A stretch of 48,467 nt of DNA from a virus. The stretch is taken from positions 1-48,467 of the IMG/VR virus record IMGVR_UViG_3300021363_000002, one strand, 5' to 3'. The position numbers and the translations under genes were made by a program. The notes under the pieces were generated by a model. The model searched no databases, was not told where the DNA came from, and saw only the letters and a program-made list of their open reading frames with translations. This document shows positions 3,340 through 40,557 of this stretch, one piece after another. Each line of letters opens with the position of its first letter. The first letter of the stretch is position 1.

Positions 3340-3635
3340 TGCGTTGGTTTCTTGTTCTTACACTACTCGCAACTACAACTTCTGTAGCTGCACACGATGC
3401 CCCCCTAGGATGGGCATATGATGGTGCTTGTTGCTCTGGCTATGACTGTTCACAGTCTATCGCAGGAGCTGTTTTGGAAACTAAAGGTGGCTATGTGATA
3501 AATAAGACACAAGAACTTATACCGTATGGTGACAAGCGCATCAGGCGGTCTCATGATGAGTTCTTCCATCAGTGTGTAATGAATAGCAATCCAAAGCATT
3601 CCCTCTGTTTATACGTGCCAGATAGAGGCTTCTGA
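3339..3635 (+). CDS. secreted Cys-rich protein
   Basis: Signal peptide MRWFLVLTLLATTTSVAA; WAYDGACCSGYDC motif; TAATG overlap. Confidence 0.55.
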   Translation: MRWFLVLTLLATTTSVAAHDAPLGWAYDGACCSGYDCSQSIAGAVLETKGGYVINKTQELIPYGDKRIRRSHDEFFHQCVMNSNPKHSLCLYVPDRGF

Positions 3636-22453: not shown

Positions 22454-24398
22454 TTGTGCTTACTCCTTTCGTTAGGTTCGCTGTGATCTCCGTATCGAGT
22501 GTCGCCCAATCTTCCTTCTTCACCAGAAGGTTGCTAAAGGCCGCCTCAAACATACGAAGCATCAGTTTCATGGTAGTACCGGGTGCAGCTTGACCAACCT
22601 GACCAAGTGCTTGTGCAATTGTCAAAGCCTCCTTCTTCTTAAACTCAGAGCTTGGCTTCTCTATACTACCGGCTGCTAACTCCATCCGGTATTTCTGGTT
22701 GAACTCTATCACAGACATGGGTTCAAAACCCTCTGCCTTAATTGGTCCAACGATTTCTGTTATCTCTTCCTTGCTGTACTTCGATACAAGCACTTCGCTA
22801 ATTGCCCAACCAAGGGCTTCAAATGCTTCTTCGATGACATCAATGAGGACGCCAGTCGTTTCTTGTCTATTGTTCTGGTAATACTGTACCTGCTCATTGG
22901 TGGTATTTGTTTTAAACTGTTCACCTTTTTCTATCGCTCCAACTGATGCAGCACGATCAATAGTTGCACGTAGCTGCGTGGTGTCGAATACTTCCTTATG
23001 TTCAAACGCCGGTGGGACCAATGCTTCAAGGATTTCGGATATCTTCCTCCCCTCTGCATCGTCTGCAATGCCAAACGCACGAACCATGTTCGGGTTTCTC
23101 AAGTGCCGAACTAGCTTGTTCACTTCCTTGACATCAACACTCTTACGATTGAACACAAGTGTATTGAATATTGTATTCCTTATCTGTGCAGCTTTTCTGT
23201 TAACCTGATTGATCTGGTTCACTTGCCCAATGTAATATGATATCTCACCGGGCTGAACGACTCCCTCGATGGGCTCCCCAAAGGAGATAATGAAATGCCT
23301 GAAGAACCGCGACAAGCCCATATCGTCATCTTCAACCCACAGTGGATGCGTCCAGTCTTCAGTATTGAACAGACTGATCCTGCGAAGCAGCTTATCGTAG
23401 AAGTATACACAGAGAACGGTATCCTTCTTCTTCAACTCTCGTTGCTCCTGCGTCATCGTGTTCATGACTGTATCAACGATGTTTGTTTCAATAGCTTTTA
23501 TGCCATCCTCATCAGCTACAACTTCTGTAGTTGCTTTAGGATGTGACCTCATCCTATATGTACCGTCACGCTTCTTCTCATAGTATGTCTGAAGCATGTA
23601 CGTGCGATCCATGTCGAAGTCTTCCATTAGCCATGGAGCATCACACAGATCGATGAAGTTACAGCCTACAGGAACCCATACCCTATGAGGCATAACATTA
23701 GTCATAGATAAACCCTTTGCCTCTGAAAGCGGCAACTGTTTATGCAGCCTCTCCAAGTGTGCATAGATGTCCTTAACATCCTGAGGGTTCTTAGCCGTAC
23801 GCAGCTTGTCTTCCAGTTTGTGCAACTCATCAACTGCCTGTTGCTGACTCCCCTCATGTTTCTGATAGTCCAATCGGATGACGCCGAAGTTCGTCAACTG
23901 ACCGTGCAATATCCATTTGCGAGCCTTCATCTTCATGTTCAAGCCGGGATAGGTCTGCTTATTCAACATGTAGTCTATGAGATATTCCAAGCTTTCGGCA
24001 AGTAAGTCCTGCGTAACGTCGGTAAACTCGATATGTGGGTTCTGCATATACGTTGAACGCATGATGGTTCGAACGTTGTTGCGTATGATGTTCTCATCAG
24101 CCTCGTTCTCAAGATGGAATTTGTATTCGGTATCGTCATCAAGACGAAGCCCTTCATCCCCACACTGGCGATAGAGTTCAAAGGCTCTGTCCCATTTCTG
24201 GTGATCAACACGATATGCTTCCCGTGTCTCATCGAAGAGCTTATGAACATATTTACCGAAGCTCTTCGGTACAGGTATCGACATACCCTTGGCAGGTAGA
24301 TAACTTGCTTCATCATCCGCCTCAACTACAGCAGCTGTATCTGGTTCGTTATCGTTCTCTAGGACAGTATCGAGAACTTGTTGCTGAGGGTTAGCCAT
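22395..24398 (-). CDS. portal protein
   Basis: 667 aa gene overlapping the TerL stop by 8 nt; called on position. Confidence 0.7.
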   Translation of the reverse strand: MANPQQQVLDTVLENDNEPDTAAVVEADDEASYLPAKGMSIPVPKSFGKYVHKLFDETREAYRVDHQKWDRAFELYRQCGDEGLRLDDDTEYKFHLENEADENIIRNNVRTIMRSTYMQNPHIEFTDVTQDLLAESLEYLIDYMLNKQTYPGLNMKMKARKWILHGQLTNFGVIRLDYQKHEGSQQQAVDELHKLEDKLRTAKNPQDVKDIYAHLERLHKQLPLSEAKGLSMTNVMPHRVWVPVGCNFIDLCDAPWLMEDFDMDRTYMLQTYYEKKRDGTYRMRSHPKATTEVVADEDGIKAIETNIVDTVMNTMTQEQRELKKKDTVLCVYFYDKLLRRISLFNTEDWTHPLWVEDDDMGLSRFFRHFIISFGEPIEGVVQPGEISYYIGQVNQINQVNRKAAQIRNTIFNTLVFNRKSVDVKEVNKLVRHLRNPNMVRAFGIADDAEGRKISEILEALVPPAFEHKEVFDTTQLRATIDRAASVGAIEKGEQFKTNTTNEQVQYYQNNRQETTGVLIDVIEEAFEALGWAISEVLVSKYSKEEITEIVGPIKAEGFEPMSVIEFNQKYRMELAAGSIEKPSSEFKKKEALTIAQALGQVGQAAPGTTMKLMLRMFEAAFSNLLVKKEDWATLDTEITANLTKGVSTSGPPTGQQQPPAAPPTAIK

Positions 24399-25902
24399 GT
24401 CTGTCTCTTTCGTCTATCTCTTGCCACTTCATCCACTCAGGGATGCTCTTAGGCTTCATGAAGTGTAAAGAAGATGCCTCTGGCAGTTTAGATACTCCAT
24501 ATTTCAGAGCATCCATAGCGTGATCATTACCATCTTTAGGCTCGTCTAATCTCTCACCTTCGGTACTTACCTTCCAGAAGTACGCGACAATCTCATCTTC
24601 AAACCATGTCAGTTCAGAGTTAATGTAGATCATCGGCCCCTCTTTTTCTTCTGGTTTGTAATGCATACCGACCCGTGGGATGATATACTCTGTAACCTTT
24701 GTAATCCCTTGCAATTTATCGTTCTGCCCCGCTCTAATCGATAGCCCCTCAAACTTAGACATGAGTAGCCGTGCAATGGTATCCGTCCCCTTACCTGTGC
24801 CATTAACAACGGTTCGCTTAAAGATAACTGGATCGGCCCATATAGGATTTGTGAAGTCGATAACATGATCATACTTCTCCCTACGGATGGCTATGGCATC
24901 TACAATGTCATCCATAGACATGTGAGCCTTATAGAAACCATCTACGATAAAGACACGACCCATATGGTCAGTAAAGCCAAGCATATAACACGAAGGGTTA
25001 ACCATGCCAAAATCAAAGCATTCAAAGTTCTCTACTGTCTCATGATGATTAAATATATCTTCGAGTACCTCTTCGATATCCTTACGAGGTACCATATGCA
25101 TAGGTGCAGAGAAATCAGGATATATTAAACCTTCATAGGCTGCCCACTCACCCATCAGGAAGCGAGAACGCATCTGGCCTTTATAGCTAGCCTCTAGACC
25201 TTGAATGAAGTCCTCTTCTAGGTTGTGAGCATTCTCATACGTAGAACCTTCAAAGACCTCCATTAGAGGCTCTAGAGTAACAGGATTATGTATCAAGTCT
25301 TCTGTTACAAGACCTGTAGCTCGCCAGCGATGGTAAGGTTTGATTAGTTTCTTATAGAACCAGTTGGCTGTCGGATTGGCAGTTAACATCATCCAACGAG
25401 GGCCACTCATTGGGAAAGAAGGGTCACTACCTTTGTAAGGTGTTGATCCACGGAGACGACCGAGTAAGTCCAACATGTCTTTATGTTGGATTTGTGGGTC
25501 TTCCATCTGGTCAACGATGACCCAATCATAGGTTGCGGATAGTAGGTTAGATGTGACTTGCCCATCAACTGATTGCTTACCCCTTTGTGAGATATATCTG
25601 AAGTTAACAGTCGAGCCGTTCTTGAAGATGAGCGTGTTGTCGTCTTTCGTAGGCCACCTTTTAACCGCATCAATGGGGCACCATTTATAGAATTCGCGAC
25701 GAATGGTATCGTTGAGTTTCGGATACGTTTCACGGGCGATCAATCCATTACAGCCGGGGTAGTCCTTGCATAGCTGTAGAGCCTTGATGCATACGGCGGC
25801 TGTCTTACCGTTGCCAAAGCCTCCAGCGATCACTTGCAGCTTCTTCGTACAGCGAAGAAACTGATGATGCATATTCCCTTCAATGATATTGTATCTAGGC
25901 AT
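24391..25902 (-). CDS. terL: terminase large subunit
   Basis: Walker A GGFGNGKT and Walker B DWVIVDQMED; 503 aa, with room for a C-terminal nuclease domain. Confidence 0.85.
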   Translation of the reverse strand: MPRYNIIEGNMHHQFLRCTKKLQVIAGGFGNGKTAAVCIKALQLCKDYPGCNGLIARETYPKLNDTIRREFYKWCPIDAVKRWPTKDDNTLIFKNGSTVNFRYISQRGKQSVDGQVTSNLLSATYDWVIVDQMEDPQIQHKDMLDLLGRLRGSTPYKGSDPSFPMSGPRWMMLTANPTANWFYKKLIKPYHRWRATGLVTEDLIHNPVTLEPLMEVFEGSTYENAHNLEEDFIQGLEASYKGQMRSRFLMGEWAAYEGLIYPDFSAPMHMVPRKDIEEVLEDIFNHHETVENFECFDFGMVNPSCYMLGFTDHMGRVFIVDGFYKAHMSMDDIVDAIAIRREKYDHVIDFTNPIWADPVIFKRTVVNGTGKGTDTIARLLMSKFEGLSIRAGQNDKLQGITKVTEYIIPRVGMHYKPEEKEGPMIYINSELTWFEDEIVAYFWKVSTEGERLDEPKDGNDHAMDALKYGVSKLPEASSLHFMKPKSIPEWMKWQEIDERDRHG

Positions 25903-31212: not shown

Positions 31213-31571
31213 GCGTTGAAGCCTTTATTGCAGATTGTTACCTTCACAGCAGCAGCACCAACTGTGCCAGTCATGATCGCCCTAATGAACAGAGGGTTTT
31301 CCATGATTGCATCAATCCTTGCCGTCGTGAACGTTAATACTGTCCCAAGAGGATTATGTAGTGTATCCCACTGAGTAGGGATATCCTTCTTAGGATCATC
31401 GTTCGTACCCTGAATAGTCACCGTACCAGAGTTAAATGTGCCTCCGACCTGTACAGTCTTATCAGGAGCGAGTGATCTGTTCATGGGCAGACCAGTGCCA
31501 TCTGTATCCGTAAGCCTCCATATAATTACACCCGGTGAGGCATAACCTGATTTATTAGTCGGTACGGCCAT
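31209..31571 (-). CDS. hypothetical beta-rich protein
   Basis: Track ORF; overlapping start and stop. Confidence 0.45.
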   Translation of the reverse strand: MAVPTNKSGYASPGVIIWRLTDTDGTGLPMNRSLAPDKTVQVGGTFNSGTVTIQGTNDDPKKDIPTQWDTLHNPLGTVLTFTTARIDAIMENPLFIRAIMTGTVGAAAVKVTICNKGFNA

Positions 31572-32175
31572 TTGATCGCTTCCTTAAGTCTATGTCTACT
31601 TTAGTCTGTTCATCCTTACTATCAGAGATGACAATCTTCAGACTATCAAAGCCGTCTTCCTGTTTGTTCTTACCAAACAAGGTTTCAGGATGTAGACCAG
31701 CACGGTCAAGTATATCCTGATTAGCTTTGAGTTTCGCTAGCTGATGTTCAGAGTTTTCAGCGATGTACATGACATTATCGAGAGCATCACTGGCAAACGA
31801 GGCGATCTTCGCCTGAAGAGAGTTGGTATTAACACCAATCATCTCATGAAAGAGGATTTCGAACGTCTCCTGATAGGCTTCAAGACGACGTATCTTCTGT
31901 ATATCTTCCACAGCTATGTGGGTAATAAACGACATCTCATTATCAGTCATACCTAAAAGCTGATAAACAATAACAGCATTGATGGCGGTTTGAGTATTCG
32001 GATCGCCAGATGGAAGTTCCTTTACAGTCCTTCTCTGTTTACTAACTATATTCCTAGCAATCGGTGCCCCAAGAACACTATTCGCATGAGGAAGAGCATT
32101 CTCAGGGTTATCACCGGGTAGGAGAACTTGTCCCTTGTCTGTGACATAGGGATCACCGGGTCTGGCTAACGGCAT
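31555..32175 (-). CDS. possible terminase small subunit
   Basis: 206 aa near the start of the late operon. HTH-like DNEMSFITHIAVEDIQKIR and a TerS-like ..NQDILDRAGLHPE motif. Weak, from memory only. Confidence 0.3.
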   Translation of the reverse strand: MPLARPGDPYVTDKGQVLLPGDNPENALPHANSVLGAPIARNIVSKQRRTVKELPSGDPNTQTAINAVIVYQLLGMTDNEMSFITHIAVEDIQKIRRLEAYQETFEILFHEMIGVNTNSLQAKIASFASDALDNVMYIAENSEHQLAKLKANQDILDRAGLHPETLFGKNKQEDGFDSLKIVISDSKDEQTKVDIDLRKRSNGRTD

Positions 32176-32327: not shown

Positions 32328-32672
32328 CTAGGCCCAAGTCTGACGATTAGGCCAACCCTTGTTCACTGGAGTAGCAATCTTGCTATCTTCAGAGAACATA
32401 TTACGTAGGATGGTCATATCACCAGCAACCGTAACACGCGACAAGTCTGTAATGAGAACAGGCTTACGAACACCACCTTGTTCAGTCTGCGAATTAGGAA
32501 TACGCTTGTGTGTAAGAAGAGCAGCACCACCTGCAACAGCACCAATCGATGCATCAAGTAGAGCGCGTATCTTCCTTGTCCGTCGTGCAAGACGGAAGTA
32601 CCGACGAAGGTTTCCCGATGTAGTTACTTTACGGAGAGTATACACTCCCCATAGAGGGCTGTAAGCAGGCAT
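32328..32672 (-). CDS. hypothetical basic protein
   Basis: Track ORF; TAATG-type junction with the upstream gene. Confidence 0.5.
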   Translation of the reverse strand: MPAYSPLWGVYTLRKVTTSGNLRRYFRLARRTRKIRALLDASIGAVAGGAALLTHKRIPNSQTEQGGVRKPVLITDLSRVTVAGDMTILRNMFSEDSKIATPVNKGWPNRQTWA

Positions 32673-32860
32673 TAGGATCGTTCTCCTTCTTCAACAATCA
32701 GACGACGTGTCTGATGAACATAGATATCAGCCGTCCCCATAGCCGGAACAACTTGTGTTTCTACAGTCGTCCACTCTGTAGACTTCGCATCTTTTCTGTT
32801 CTGCAGTTGAACATTAACTGGCCAACCTGCATGAGCATCAACTGTAACCTTGGTTGTCAT
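32672..32860 (-). CDS. first late-operon protein, 62 aa (MTTKVTVDAHAGWPVNV...)
   Basis: ATG 32860 is preceded by ACAGGAGTT. The track ORF N-terminal extension runs into the AT-rich promoter region. Confidence 0.5.
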   Translation of the reverse strand: MTTKVTVDAHAGWPVNVQLQNRKDAKSTEWTTVETQVVPAMGTADIYVHQTRRLIVEEGERS

Positions 32861-32888
32861 GTGAACTCCTGTTATTCGCAAGTTCACG

Positions 32889-32903
32889 CTACAGGTGTTG
32901 TAG
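32889..32903. repeat. motif copy in the 5' leader of the late operon
   Basis: GCTACAGGTGTTGTAGT, between the candidate late promoter and ATG 32860. Confidence 0.9.
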
Positions 32904-32926
32904 TGGAATGTAAATATGTATAAAAC

Positions 32927-32955
32927 AATATAAAATATATATTGCATAAGAACAA
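32927..32955 (-). promoter_or_regulatory. candidate sigma70 promoter of the late (minus) operon: TTGTTC-N17-TATATT
   Basis: Read on the minus strand in the AT-rich block, about 65 nt upstream of ATG 32860. Confidence 0.4.
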
Positions 32956-33031
32956 AAAATATGTTATGGAATGTTATTCCCATTCAATAACACGGTGGTC
33001 GGTGCAGGCGTTACTTATGTGGGAGTCCGTC

Positions 33032-33060
33032 TTGACTTCTAGCTACAACTTCTGTAGTGT
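33032..33060 (+). promoter_or_regulatory. candidate promoter TTGACT-N17-TAGTGT with a motif copy filling the spacer
   Basis: Hexamers and 17-nt spacing read directly. The -10 keeps only the T1, A2 and T6 positions. Confidence 0.3.
33043..33057. repeat. motif copy inside a candidate promoter spacer
   Basis: GCTACAACTTCTGTAGT between TTGACT and TAGTGT. Confidence 0.9.
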
Positions 33061-33390
33061 ACTTATAGCAGGTTGGTTGGACACAACTTGCTAGAGCGCG
33101 GTTCTTCCATACCTGTGCTCCAAGTGTGCAGTTCTAGGATAAGGCGGCCTATTACTGCACACTAGTTATTAGATGGCAGTTGCGATGGGTCACTCATCGG
33201 CGGAACTTCTGCTATCTAGGCGGGTGTGATTTTCCCTCCGTTGGTCACACTCGCCACCAATTCTAGATAGATTATCCCCCCAGTCTATCTAGAAAGTGGG
33301 CGCAGTCTGGTAGTCCCCCCTCCCCTGTGGCTGCGCTCACACTCTTCCCCCATAGAAGAAAGATCATACGCCGTCAGGCGCGATGTTAAC

Positions 33391-33451
33391 CCCCAACAAA
33401 TACCCTTATTGCTAATCACACTACCCTCCCCATCAAATATCCCTATTGCTA
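33391..33451 (+). repeat. two 24-nt direct repeats (CCCCAWCAAATAYCCYTATTGCTA), 21/24 identical, 37-nt period
   Basis: 33391..33414 and 33428..33451 aligned by eye. Confidence 0.7.
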
Positions 33452-33506
33452 TTTAACAACATATAGCGCAACTATATCTGATTAGTTACTACTCCTCCCA
33501 ATGACT

Positions 33507-33541
33507 GCGGCTGGTTGATTTATCAACTGGCCGCTTTTTTG
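33507..33541 (+). terminator. intrinsic terminator
   Basis: 12-bp stem GCGGCTGGTTGA/TCAACTGGCCGC (two G-U pairs), TTTA loop, then TTTTTT. Confidence 0.65.
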
Positions 33542-33549
33542 TATTCTGA

Positions 33550-33564
33550 CTACAGGAGTTGTAG
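33550..33564. repeat. motif copy (loop GGAGT) just after the ncRNA terminator
   Basis: ACTACAGGAGTTGTAGT followed by GT, the same TGTAGTGT as at 33053..33060. Confidence 0.9.
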
Positions 33565-33815
33565 TGTCTTTTGTTATAGCAAGCTATAGGGGATACCGGG
33601 GGATAAGGCTTATCTCGCTCCCGCTCGCCGGCGACTTTTCTACAACCCCCGATTGTACTCTTTTACAACCTAGGGGGGTAGGGGGGCAGCTATTATATTT
33701 GTCTGATAAATCAGACAATACGAATACAACCTCCAGTTGCTTGCACATTAACGTAAATGCGCGCATACTTCCTTCGAACTCACTAGAACTGTGCCTGCAA
33801 CCCAAGGAGACCAAC

Positions 33816-34118
33816 ATGACCGCTACCAAGAATACCAATACTGCAAGAATACTTGATGATCTCTCAACTACAACACCTGTAGTTGAAGGCGCTATACCAG
33901 AAGACGAAAGCAAGGCTGAGACATTCGCAAGGTTAACGCCATTGCGTGTTAACAACGCGCTCGACAAGATACGCATCGTCGGCAATCTGGCAAATAGAAG
34001 TCAGTACGAATACACTGACGCGCAAGTAGACAAGATTGAAGCCGCTCTTATGTGGGCAGTGCAAGATATCATGCGCAAGTTCCGCAATGTAAAGATACGG
34101 AACACGTTCGAACTATAG
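33816..34118 (+). CDS. hypothetical protein, 100 aa (first early protein)
   Basis: ATG 33816 is preceded by AAGGAGA. In frame with track ORF 33564..34118. Confidence 0.55.
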   Translation: MTATKNTNTARILDDLSTTTPVVEGAIPEDESKAETFARLTPLRVNNALDKIRIVGNLANRSQYEYTDAQVDKIEAALMWAVQDIMRKFRNVKIRNTFEL

Positions 34119-34272: not shown

Positions 34273-34301
34273 TTGTAAATGTAGGTATTATCCCATATAA
34301 T
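34273..34301 (+). promoter_or_regulatory. sigma70 promoter TTGTAA-N17-TATAAT
   Basis: Read directly; 45 nt upstream of the 34348 start. Confidence 0.6.
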
Positions 34302-34330: not shown

Positions 34331-34345
34331 CTACAGGAGTTGTAG
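34331..34345. repeat. motif copy carrying the RBS (AGGAG) in its loop
   Basis: ACTACAGGAGTTGTAGTGATG. Confidence 0.9.
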
Positions 34346-34347
34346 TG

Positions 34348-34530
34348 ATGTCCAAGCTAACATTAGAACAATTCATTGATGCTAATTGGGTGGTTGGCGT
34401 TTCAGCAGTTGAGTTGATGGATAATATAGATAAGACATTCTGGATAGTTATTCAGAAGAGATATCTATATCTGGATAATAAACTAGAAACTAACAGCAAG
34501 AAGATAACTCATGAAAGGGGTTCAAGGTGA
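34348..34530 (+). CDS. hypothetical protein (ATG 34348, or GTG 34345)
   Basis: Track ORF. The AGGAG in the motif loop lies 8 nt upstream of the ATG. Confidence 0.55.
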   Translation: MSKLTLEQFIDANWVVGVSAVELMDNIDKTFWIVIQKRYLYLDNKLETNSKKITHERGSR

Positions 34531-35574: not shown

Positions 35575-35589
35575 CTACAGGAGTTGTAG
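35575..35589. repeat. motif copy carrying the RBS in its loop
   Basis: ACTACAGGAGTTGTAGTCGTG. Confidence 0.9.
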
Positions 35590-35591
35590 TC

Positions 35592-35777
35592 GTGGTTAAA
35601 GTGTTCGTCCTTGTAGGACAATTCATCGTCTTGCCGCCATGTGTATCGGAAGATGCACATAACTGTTATTGGGATGCGCAGAGCATGAGGAACCATGTAG
35701 GCAAGTCTTTCATCGATATAGATGGAGAAGTCTTGTATGATATCCCATCATTTAATATGCCAATAGAGGAGAAGTAA
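35592..35777 (+). CDS. hypothetical protein
   Basis: GTG start 2 nt after a motif copy with AGGAG in its loop. Confidence 0.5.
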   Translation: MVKVFVLVGQFIVLPPCVSEDAHNCYWDAQSMRNHVGKSFIDIDGEVLYDIPSFNMPIEEK

Positions 35778-37402: not shown

Positions 37403-37463
37403 CACCTTACATAAGCATTTTGCCTTTGTTAGCGAGGAAATTGTCTTGACAAAGGAGGGTGTT

Positions 37464-37646
37464 ATGCCTTATGATGAGAGAGTAATACCAGTTGAGTTTC
37501 AAAAGACTCTCAACGCAGGGGTTTATGGGTTCCGTGACAAGGAGACACGGGACACATTCATCAGTATGATTAACAAATCTAGTGATATTGAACGAGCATT
37601 CATTGCTAAGTTTGGTAGCCCTCCTGACTACAGCACTTGTAGTTAG
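37464..37646 (+). CDS. hypothetical protein, 60 aa
   Basis: ATG 37464 is preceded by AAGGAGGG. Its C-terminal codons carry the only out-of-frame motif copy. Confidence 0.45.
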   Translation: MPYDERVIPVEFQKTLNAGVYGFRDKETRDTFISMINKSSDIERAFIAKFGSPPDYSTCS

Positions 37647-38805: not shown

Positions 38806-38840
38806 AAGGGCCATGCTGTGAAAAGCGTGGCCCTTATTTT
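38806..38840 (+). terminator. intrinsic terminator
   Basis: AAGGGCCA..TGGCCCTT stem followed by ATTTTG. Confidence 0.65.
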
Positions 38841-39914: not shown

Positions 39915-39943
39915 TTGACAATGTTCCAAAACGGCGTTATAAT
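39915..39943 (+). promoter_or_regulatory. perfect-consensus sigma70 promoter TTGACA-N17-TATAAT
   Basis: Read directly. Confidence 0.7.
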
Positions 39944-40433: not shown

Positions 40434-40442
40434 CTGACTTCG

Positions 40443-40480
40443 ATAGCCAGTCGTATTTGTTGCGGCTGGCTATTCTTTTG
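40443..40480 (+). terminator. intrinsic terminator
   Basis: 11-bp stem ATAGCCAGTCG/CGGCTGGCTAT followed by TCTTTTG. Confidence 0.7.
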
Positions 40481-40481
40481 A

Positions 40482-40557
40482 TGGAAAGTAGCTCAGTTGG
40501 TAGAGCAGCGGTCTCCAAAACCGCAGGTCGTAGGTTCAAGCCCTGCCTTTCCAGCCA
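40482..40557 (+). tRNA. tRNA-Trp: tRNA-Trp (anticodon CCA), CCA end encoded
   Basis: Cloverleaf folded by hand. Acceptor TGGAAAG/CTTTCCA. D arm GCTC-AGTTGGTA-GAGC. Anticodon arm GCGGT-CTCCAAA-ACCGC. Variable loop AGGTC. T arm GTAGG-TTCAAGC-CCTGC. Discriminator G, then CCA. Confidence 0.85.

Follow-up and report, generated by a model that had tools for sequence, protein, structure and literature searches.

A candidate structured non-coding RNA with a C-rich core in the divergent control region of an uncultured tailed phage

The divergent control region and its relatives

The stretch of DNA analysed here, IMG/VR record IMGVR_UViG_3300021363_000002 (48,467 nucleotides; hereafter the window), covers the complete genome, assembled as a circle, of an uncultured tailed phage (48.5 kb, 46% G+C); several ENA, Logan and JGI samples contain identical copies on contigs of 48.4-48.9 kb. 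Its packaging and structural (late) genes form a minus-strand block from 5474 to 32860, and the early genes form a plus-strand block that starts at 33816, wraps round to 5508 and has among its products a family A DNA polymerase with a uracil-DNA-glycosylase-like N-terminus, a RecD-like helicase and an AAA_24 protein. The two divergent blocks are separated by a 955-bp gap, within which lies a putative RNA gene of about 476 nt (33066-33541, Table 1). Its gene structure and fold are well supported by comparison with related phages, and the RNA is a candidate for a new family, so far confined to one uncultured phage lineage. As for function, we tentatively favour, with a probability of roughly 0.4, a stand-alone non-coding RNA gene of this undescribed tailed-phage lineage whose product would act in trans through exposed C-rich sequence.

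The locus is adjoined by an AT-rich stretch (32905-32990), the small-terminase gene lies 900 bp from it, and the minimum of the cumulative GC skew, at 33-34 kb, falls in the same place as the switch in gene orientation. Isolated phages are very distant: a search for DNA similarity among 50,697 isolated phage genomes, in near and distant modes, gave no match, and the best protein matches have ~25% identity. No regulator, antiterminator, integrase, repressor or palindrome-binding protein was recognised by Pfam and PHROG scans of 40 proteins.

Relatives were obtained by exact-protein look-ups in ENA and Logan assemblies, and one further lineage (L185) by scanning IMG/VR for the core of a small hairpin, H8, described below. 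The same divergent gap was found in L006, L181 and L309, which are ~80% identical to one another (the L006 clade), as well as in L008, L178 (= L179), L182 and L185. All lineages have a common layout. The start of the late operon is followed by a copy of the palindrome CTACA-N5-TGTAG, usually an AT-rich stretch, and a sigma70-like promoter element; then come 420-540 nt of hairpin-rich sequence, the invariant word ACGCCGU(C)AGGCGCGAUG, a C/U-rich stretch and a hairpin with a U-run; finally, another palindrome copy, the block CTCGCTnCGCTCGCC, a small hairpin with a U-run and a G-run pair precede the first early gene. We rejected the idea that the inverted palindrome copies at 33043 and 33550 bracket a mobile element, since synteny holds here for all relatives and copies of the palindrome are spread over the whole genome.

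Other searches were less productive. IMG/VR searches seeded with the small terminase, the first early protein or a nine-sequence alignment of the 114-residue protein encoded next to the locus returned nothing. Scans of viral and metagenome contigs for the pattern ATCTCGCT(N)CCGCTCGC produced only chance matches in G+C-rich DNA, and so did the H8 core pattern in genome contigs; in IMG/VR that core pattern retrieved one true relative, L185. The four matches to the pattern TAGTTACTACTCCTCCC were all due to chance.

Table 1. Coordinates of the parts of the putative RNA gene and of other features of the window
Feature	Position	Strand	Description	Basis
Late-operon promoter-like element	32886..32914	-	TTTACA, 5 nt, CTACAACACCTG, TAGCGT	consensus
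RNA promoter-like element	33032..33060	+	TTGACT (33032-37), 17-nt spacer with CTACAACTTCTGTAG (33043-57), -10-like TAGTGT (33055-60)	conservation
H1	33066-93	+		minimum-free-energy fold
H2	33094-120	+		minimum-free-energy fold
H3	33123-163	+	stem 33123-32/33154-63	minimum-free-energy fold
H4	33170-216	+		
H5	33219-255	+	loop CCCUCC	
H6	33261-294	+	loop CCCCCC; stem 33261-71/33284-94	
H7	33296-340	+	loop CCCCCCUCCCC	
H8	33362..33387	+	invariant hairpin; core ACGCCGUCAGGCGCGAUG at 33368-33385, stem CGCC/GGCG, 3′ flank CGAUGU	
C/U-rich tract	33381..33500	+	G-depleted, predicted single-stranded; ends in UAGUUACUACUCCUCCC (33483-33499), 7 nt before terminator stem	
Intrinsic terminator	33507..33541	+	12-bp stem (33507-33534; 7 G-C pairs), 4-nt loop, TTTTTT	
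Third promoter-like element	33539..33567	+	TTGTAT, 17 nt with CTACAGGAGTTGTAG (33550-64), TAGTGT	inferred
G-run pair	33589-33602; 33673-33686		GGGGAUACCGGGGG; G6-UA-G6	
Conserved block	33613-33628		CTCGCTnCGCTCGCC, downstream of RNA terminator	
Small hairpin and U-run	33641-33665		CAACC..GGTTG; compensatory CAACT/AGTTG in L178	
Early-region promoters, near-perfect consensus	34273-34301; 37446-37475			
Early-region promoter, sigma70-type	39915-39943		TTGACA-17-TATAAT, 12/12 matches	
Early-region strong intrinsic terminators	38806-38835; 40442-40474	+		
Small terminase gene	31555-32175	-		Pfam/PHROG scans
Large terminase gene	24391-25902	-		Pfam/PHROG scans

A plus-strand fold supported by covariation

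A preliminary description of the locus, made from the sequence of the window, had proposed a functional structured RNA on the plus strand with its own terminator. This core of the proposal is upheld by the fold, the covariation, the bias in G-U pairs, the kept terminator and the lack of an open reading frame (ORF). The plus strand of 33062-33541 folds with -174.6 kcal/mol (z = -8.4), and no shuffled sequence did as well; the z-score of the minus strand is -3.9. All eight lineages, the window included, have z(+) values from -5 to -12, and in seven of them the minus strand scores less negatively. The predicted architecture is a string of local hairpins in which neither multi-way junctions nor pseudoknots are evident, and H3 and H6 contain the two long perfect stems that had been pointed out earlier.

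The strand had originally been assigned from G-T pairs, which would form in a plus-sense transcript but not in a cruciform, and this argument stands. G-U pairs are present in H1, H4, H5, H6, H7 and the terminator (H3 has none), and every G-U hairpin of the window is weaker by 2-10 kcal/mol as the reverse complement (in kcal/mol, -13.3 against -8.2 for H1, -19.0 against -9.3 for H4, -19.9 against -14.7 for H5 and -21.3 against -15.3 for H7). Moreover, all eight one-sided substitutions in well-aligned helices of the L006 clade convert a Watson-Crick pair into G-U on the plus strand; none yields A-C, which is what a minus-strand RNA or a cruciform would tolerate. This asymmetry contradicts a double-stranded cruciform.

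The L006 clade offers clear cases of double compensation in H5, H7 and the terminator. When the window is compared with L006 over four positionally homologous helices, 21 of the 43 pairs have changed on both sides, five on one side and 17 not at all, and all of them are standard pairs; six of the ten pairs of H3 differ on both sides with pairing kept. An alignment of four sequences built from sequence only has 17 doubly changed pairs, compared with 5.0 ± 1.9 in shuffles and at most eight in slid controls. Because such an alignment puts many 3′ helix arms of the window out of register, we used helix-by-helix comparison and covariance-model alignment. The covariance model R1, which covers H5-H7 and was made from three L006-clade sequences with the window left out, has a single match in the window, at 33216-33344 (30.7 bits, E = 1.5e-6). 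Of the cells in the corresponding alignment, 98.4% pair. Both sides have changed in 16 of the 32 pairs, a number that none of 500 shuffles reaches (5.4 ± 1.8), and slid controls have at most two such pairs. Compensatory changes in homologous regions, one of the tests named in the preliminary description, are thus found well above controls. R1 matches none of L008, L178, L182 and L185.

Coding potential and known RNA families

As noted earlier, no ORF of at least 60 amino acids is present in 32984-33563, the longest having 50, 30, 31 and 44 residues, and no ORF is conserved across relatives. We considered whether the locus could nevertheless encode a small protein or a leader peptide, either from a 30-residue ORF at 33073-33165 or from a mini-ORF starting at an AUG in H8 (33383). 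An ORF of 30-31 codons is indeed found in the same position in the window, L006, L181 and L309, and the AUG, within GCGCGAUGUUAC, is invariant, the peptides starting with ML(L/T) in most lineages and with MS in L008. Yet the 30-31-residue products of the window and the L006 clade are dissimilar, their TTG, ATG or GTG starts have no ribosome site, and the ORFs lie inside strong helices. Likewise, the mini-ORFs from H8 have 4, 6, 10, 10, 32, 38, 45 and 66 codons (10 in the window) and unrelated sequences, and their AUG is paired. Indels in the region are frequently not multiples of three, and open frames arise by chance in G-poor sequence, from which two of the three stop codons are missing. A coding role is therefore extremely improbable, and the earlier expectation that no small conserved ORF lies behind the conservation has held, the ORFs of the relatives being unrelated. 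The conserved, partly paired AUG at 33383 probably starts no peptide. Just downstream, the ORF 33564-34118 (GTG start) was rejected as a protein because 1-nt indels shift its frame while the DNA is conserved.

The RNA had been suspected to fall outside known families, and a comparison with Rfam 15 agrees with this. In the whole window the only match at gathering score is a tRNA-Trp at 40482; lowering the threshold to E up to 10 for 32800-33900 added four chance-level matches (SdsR, suhB, bxd and SMAD5-AS), far below gathering scores. The seven related loci have no match.

With a length of ~0.5 kb, many covariation-supported helices, a location on a phage genome and no assigned function, the RNA resembles GOLLD, ROOL and HEARO. 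In contrast to these, it is a simpler chain of hairpins with a narrow distribution in one phage lineage, and it matches none of their models.

Promoters, terminator and the possibility of a cis-acting leader

The 5′ end of the RNA gene is placed by a conserved promoter-like element. L006, L181 and L309 have TTGACA-17-TAGTTT in the same position relative to H1. The predicted start is at about 33066-33067, 7 nt after the -10-like TAGTGT, and is more likely than the position 33062 suggested at first. H1 would then begin within 1-2 nt of the 5′ end, as is usual for stable RNAs. A side observation concerns the ENA contig L002 (48.9 kb), which is 100% identical to the window rightwards of 33031 and only ~70% identical leftwards (L002:1-464 versus 32623-33031). 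This boundary, just upstream of the -35 of the RNA promoter, is either a strain recombination boundary or an assembly chimera.

At the 3′ end, the canonical intrinsic terminator of the preliminary description is present, with a fold of -19.7 kcal/mol on the plus strand against -13.7 kcal/mol for the reverse complement. A hairpin with a U-run occupies the same place in every lineage, and its stem sequence differs each time; the window and L006 disagree on both sides in six of eight stem pairs. Such conservation has meaning only for a plus-strand transcript, and in a DNA-only element both the conserved hairpin with its U-run and the promoter would have no role.

Three promoter-like elements of the control region are built alike: 5 nt separate the -35 hexamer from the palindrome, whose last TAG opens the -10. 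Their predicted targets are the late operon, the RNA and a transcript that begins just past the RNA terminator. In the late promoter the palindrome (32889-32903) fills the spacer and gives the first 3 nt of the -10, and TT[T/G]ACA-N5-motif-TAGnnn is also found upstream of the late genes in L006, L181, L309, L008 and L178. The third element overlaps the U-run of the terminator, which supplies the TTG of its -35, and thereby marks the downstream edge of the RNA unit; its likeness is found in L008 and L010, and a weaker one elsewhere. A further promoter-like element at 33741-69, before the gene at 33816, is kept in four lineages.

These elements bear on the main rival of a stand-alone RNA, a cis-acting leader, which we regard as a serious though rather unlikely alternative. 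On this reading, early transcription would start mainly at the promoter 33032-33060, and the structured RNA would form the 5′ portion of a leader 750 nt long. The polymerase would read through 33507-33541 and then the hairpin and U-run at 33641-33665 into the early genes, prompted by the nascent RNA (as in HK022 put, Tn916 canT and Bacillus EAR) or by a protein bound to H8 (as in lambda N-boxB); the 476-nt species would be a mere terminated by-product, like lambda 6S RNA from PR'. The element has the best -35 of the region (TTGACT/TTGACA), the 750 nt between it and the first early gene downstream hold no ORF, and both successive terminator-like hairpins are conserved. Against a leader, the early region has perfect or near-perfect sigma70 promoters and strong internal terminators of its own, one of them directly 5′ of the tRNA-Trp gene (40482-40557), so that the early genes need not depend on the RNA promoter and the terminators seem to be real stops. 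With such promoters and terminators the genome looks organised as discrete units, and the phage seems to rely on host polymerase. The promoter-like elements at 33539-67 and 33741-69, between the terminator and the gene at 33816, also argue against a leader and support a stand-alone unit.

In lambda nutR-tR1, boxA and the boxB hairpin are flanked by the rutA and rutB Rho-loading sequences. The order of an invariant small hairpin, a C-rich G-poor tract and termination, between an early-type promoter and downstream genes, is the same here and is kept family-wide. Unlike nutR-tR1, the phage locus has no boxA consensus, its H8 loop varies between 2 and 4 nt and is not a GNRA-like pentaloop as boxB would lead one to expect, an intrinsic terminator follows, and the preceding sequence is 300 nt of structured RNA rather than cro. 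In lambda the conserved boxB loop is bound by N, an arginine-rich protein encoded nearby. No N-like, Q-like or otherwise recognisable regulator turned up among 30 proteins of the early and middle regions, N having been looked for with Pfam; proteins of the N type are difficult to identify from their sequence. Large cis-acting antiterminator RNAs with many hairpins are documented, such as the 341-452-nt canT of Tn916 (PMC11658703), which precedes a terminator and a long replication operon; others are pLS20 conAn2, HK022 put and Bacillus EAR (compare PMC9378689). Like these RNAs of mobile elements, the phage RNA is long, consists of multiple hairpins and follows a promoter directly, with terminators and replication genes further on. 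The likeness is positional: the downstream genes of the phage have their own promoters and terminators, and the 5′ hairpin domain is specific to a clade and not conserved across the family.

C-rich loops and a conserved 3′ core

Conservation differs between segments. Within the L006 clade, identity is 92-97% for H1-H5, 98% for the linker with H8 and 87-92% for the final word and the terminator; the adjacent gene for the 114-residue protein has 79-84%, the C/U-rich tract 60-88% and flanking non-coding DNA 60-79%. Therefore, the 5′ domain and H8 are constrained in sequence, and the tract mostly in composition.

The 5′ scaffold of seven hairpins, three of them with C-rich loops, is specific to the window's clade. 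The C-tracts listed in the preliminary description lie where it had placed them and are predicted to be unpaired, with P(unpaired) of 0.67-1.0. Their resemblance to the anti-Shine-Dalgarno sequence, which it had also proposed, holds in part. YCCUCY/CUCCUC words occur five times in the window RNA, where dinucleotide shuffles give 1.3 (p about 0.005), and CCUCC-like words exceed such shuffles in five of eight lineages; the C-rich loops are a feature of the window and the L006 clade, not of the whole family. The enrichment may partly be a side effect of G-free, C/U-rich composition. Similarly, H5 and H7 had been taken for paralogous helices (33220-54 and 33296-340): they do share a loop word (CCCUCC and CCCCCCUCCCC in the window, AAACCCCCCUC twice in L006, L181 and L309), but their stems are only about half identical, which makes the case weak.

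What all lineages share is H8, a G-depleted C-rich stretch, a CCUCC-like word a few nt before the terminator, and the terminator itself. H8 is present in eight of eight lineages in one to three copies each, a single one in the window. The G-poorest 60 nt begin 10-36 nt after it in seven of the eight. At 33381-33479 the window has a composition (G ≤ 3 and C ≥ 18 per 60 nt) that recurs nowhere else on either strand of its 48.5 kb; the best 60-nt stretch there has one G, 24 C and 17 YC dimers, and over the tract there are 13-21 YC per 60 nt. The final conserved word of the tract, UAGUUACUACUCCUCCC, is invariant in four lineages. The predicted family-wide 3′ core is thus H8, a G-free C/U-rich single strand of ~100 nt that ends in CUCCUCCC, and the terminator.

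A core of this kind might serve as a platform for loading Rho. Rho utilisation (rut) sites are C-rich, G-poor, unstructured RNA with YC dimers (compare the review PMC12360218). The tract, by prediction, satisfies this description (60-80 or more nt of C-rich, G-poor, unstructured sequence with many YC dimers); it is unique in the genome by composition, and seven of eight lineages keep this composition after H8 despite a drift in sequence (60-88% identity), which places the constraint on composition rather than on sequence. H8 and the tract would then form a back-up Rho-dependent terminator, or the RNA, if abundant, a decoy for Rho. A rut-like role leaves the strongly conserved 5′ hairpins and the sequence-invariant CUCCUCCC unexplained. 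We consider such a platform unlikely. The more specific proposal, that H8 and the G-free tract, expressed from a strong promoter and ended by a strong terminator, form a decoy of a host factor recognising C-rich RNA, most obviously Rho, is distinctly unlikely; we know of no RNA decoy of Rho. If it were true, the phage would relax host termination, or another process that involves C-rich RNA, by means of an RNA and not of a protein like P4 Psu.

The position and composition of the transcript also bear on an origin-associated element, be it a replication primer or activator (as ColE1 RNA II or T4 R-loops), a single-strand initiation site or a packaging site. The skew minimum, the adjoining AT-rich stretch, the conserved non-coding blocks and G-runs just downstream, and the nearby small-terminase gene would all suit such an element, and G-T wobble is tolerated in folded single-stranded DNA too. 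On the other hand, the switch in transcription direction alone explains the skew minimum, no iterons are present and H8 is a single-copy hairpin in the window. Stable R-loops, including the ColE1 RNA II and T4 origin primers, need a G-rich RNA segment, whereas this transcript is C-rich (28% C, 20% G). As for packaging, phi29 packaging RNA, of 120-174 nt, belongs to protein-primed podoviruses without a small terminase; in contrast, the phage has a small and a large terminase and a family A DNA polymerase, and its RNA is three times longer. Origin, primer and DNA-only roles are less likely than the readings above, and an origin-associated element as a whole is very unlikely.

A proposed stand-alone RNA acting in trans

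Returning to a stand-alone RNA gene with a trans-acting product, we envisage that the RNA pairs through its exposed C-rich sequence with G-rich RNA, in the way of 6C and RsaE/RoxS, and that the hairpin scaffold together with H8 provides stability and a protein-binding site. Pairing candidates would be Shine-Dalgarno regions (GGAGG) or, in the neighbouring early leader, the conserved G-run pair G6-UA-G6; the G-runs at 33676-33686 are complementary to the H7 loop in 10 of 11 positions. The RNA promoter resembles the late promoter in its build, the palindrome spanning spacer and -10 in both, so that whatever binds the palindrome probably switches the RNA together with the late genes.

The C-rich loops or motifs of 6C (Actinobacteria) and RsaE/RoxS (Firmicutes) pair with G-rich or Shine-Dalgarno sequences (compare PMC6486639 and PMC2790875). 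The phage RNA resembles these in that its hairpins present unpaired CCCUCC, CCCCCC and CCCCCCUCCCC, in having a C-rich single strand beside an intrinsic terminator, and in being a stand-alone promoter-terminator unit; H5 and H7 are two hairpins with cytosine-run loops, which is what characterises 6C. It differs from both in being five to eight times longer, phage-encoded and composed of seven hairpins and a 100-nt G-free tail, with C-runs that are not conserved family-wide. Neither model matched at E up to 10. The 6C RNAs have 60-80 nt and come from actinobacterial chromosomes, as against ~476 nt and a phage of 46% G+C, and RsaE/RoxS, a small RNA of ~100 nt with CCCC motifs in single strands, differs in length and architecture.

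Among phage RNAs, the P1 c4 and P4 CI immunity RNAs have 70-80 nt, are processed from an operon transcript and carry loops complementary to downstream control-region sites. The complementarity of the H7 loop to 33676-33686 is reminiscent of this, although it is not demonstrably conserved in relatives.

Several observations weigh against trans action or limit the support for it. Runs of at least four C are absent from L178 and rare in L182 and L185, and the G-run element is altered in L006, so that no co-variation between C-loops and G-runs could be shown. A search for antisense targets in the phage genome found only matches of 11-13 nt, at chance level, and no extended target. The phage's own genes use AGGAG ribosome sites, and a general sponge for Shine-Dalgarno sequences would therefore not discriminate phage from host. 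The G-free tract of 60-100 nt exceeds what a pairing seed needs and fits a protein-loading (Rho utilisation) site at least as well. The putative RNA promoter rests on conservation: in the window its -10, TAGTGT, matches TATAAT in three of six positions, and this copy is absent from the list of a simple consensus scan. Finally, the comparison covers only eight lineages, and the covariation tests involve four sequences, effectively two deep branches, with the R1 alignment (A6) fitted to structure.

Comparative support exists for few phage non-coding RNAs as large as this, and hardly any has a known role. The present one combines a clear gene structure, covariation and conservation above that of the neighbouring protein gene, its core of hairpin, G-free tract and terminator is simple and testable, and it is placed at the early/late gene switch of a phage lineage without a cultured relative. 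Should G-rich RNA or a host factor prove to be its target in trans, the phage would possess a novel RNA-based means of host takeover or timing; should it work in cis, a phage example would be added to the small set of large antiterminator RNAs.

A genome-wide palindrome and other conserved elements

The 15-bp palindrome CTACA-N5-TGTAG (form CTACAACACCTGTAG) has 41 copies in the window, about one per 1.1 kb, where 0.04 are expected. Copies are found under both transcription directions, for example at 3373, 9469, 21469, 32313, 32889, 33043, 33550, 33868 and 46001; its density in all relatives is 0.8-3.6 per kb, and the flanks extend the symmetry (yaR...Ytr). Predicted ORFs contain 27 of the 41 copies, and all 27 are in one codon phase, nCT-ACA-NNN-NNT-GTA-Gnn (Thr-x-x-Val), so that selection acts on the DNA or RNA word, with the proteins accommodating it. 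The palindrome looks like a genome-wide site of a dimeric DNA-binding protein. Mycobacteriophage stoperators, by comparison, are asymmetric sites of 13-17 bp, mostly intergenic and transcription-oriented, that are bound by the immunity repressor. Here the sites are palindromic, two-thirds genic (27 of 41) and under both directions, and no repressor or integrase was recognised among the 40 proteins scanned.

The palindrome variant CTACAGGAGTTGTAG holds AGGAG, with a start codon 7-8 nt after it at GTG 33564, ATG 34348 and GTG 35592. These sites (33550-33566, 34331-34350 and 35575-35594) overlap ribosome-binding sites, and an additional action on RNA is conceivable for them.

Beyond the RNA terminator, 33589-33686 holds elements that are conserved in all lineages but not as protein, since 1-nt indels shift the frame. 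Its GC-rich block, near the terminase genes, might serve in packaging or regulation.

Elsewhere in the genome, the DNA polymerase A gene (227-2707) encodes a single protein of 826 residues that has an N-terminal domain of the uracil-DNA-glycosylase superfamily and a 3′-5′ exonuclease domain; its nearest homologues in isolated phages are ~25% identical. The palindrome, which overlaps all three control-region promoters, looks like a global regulatory system in its own right.

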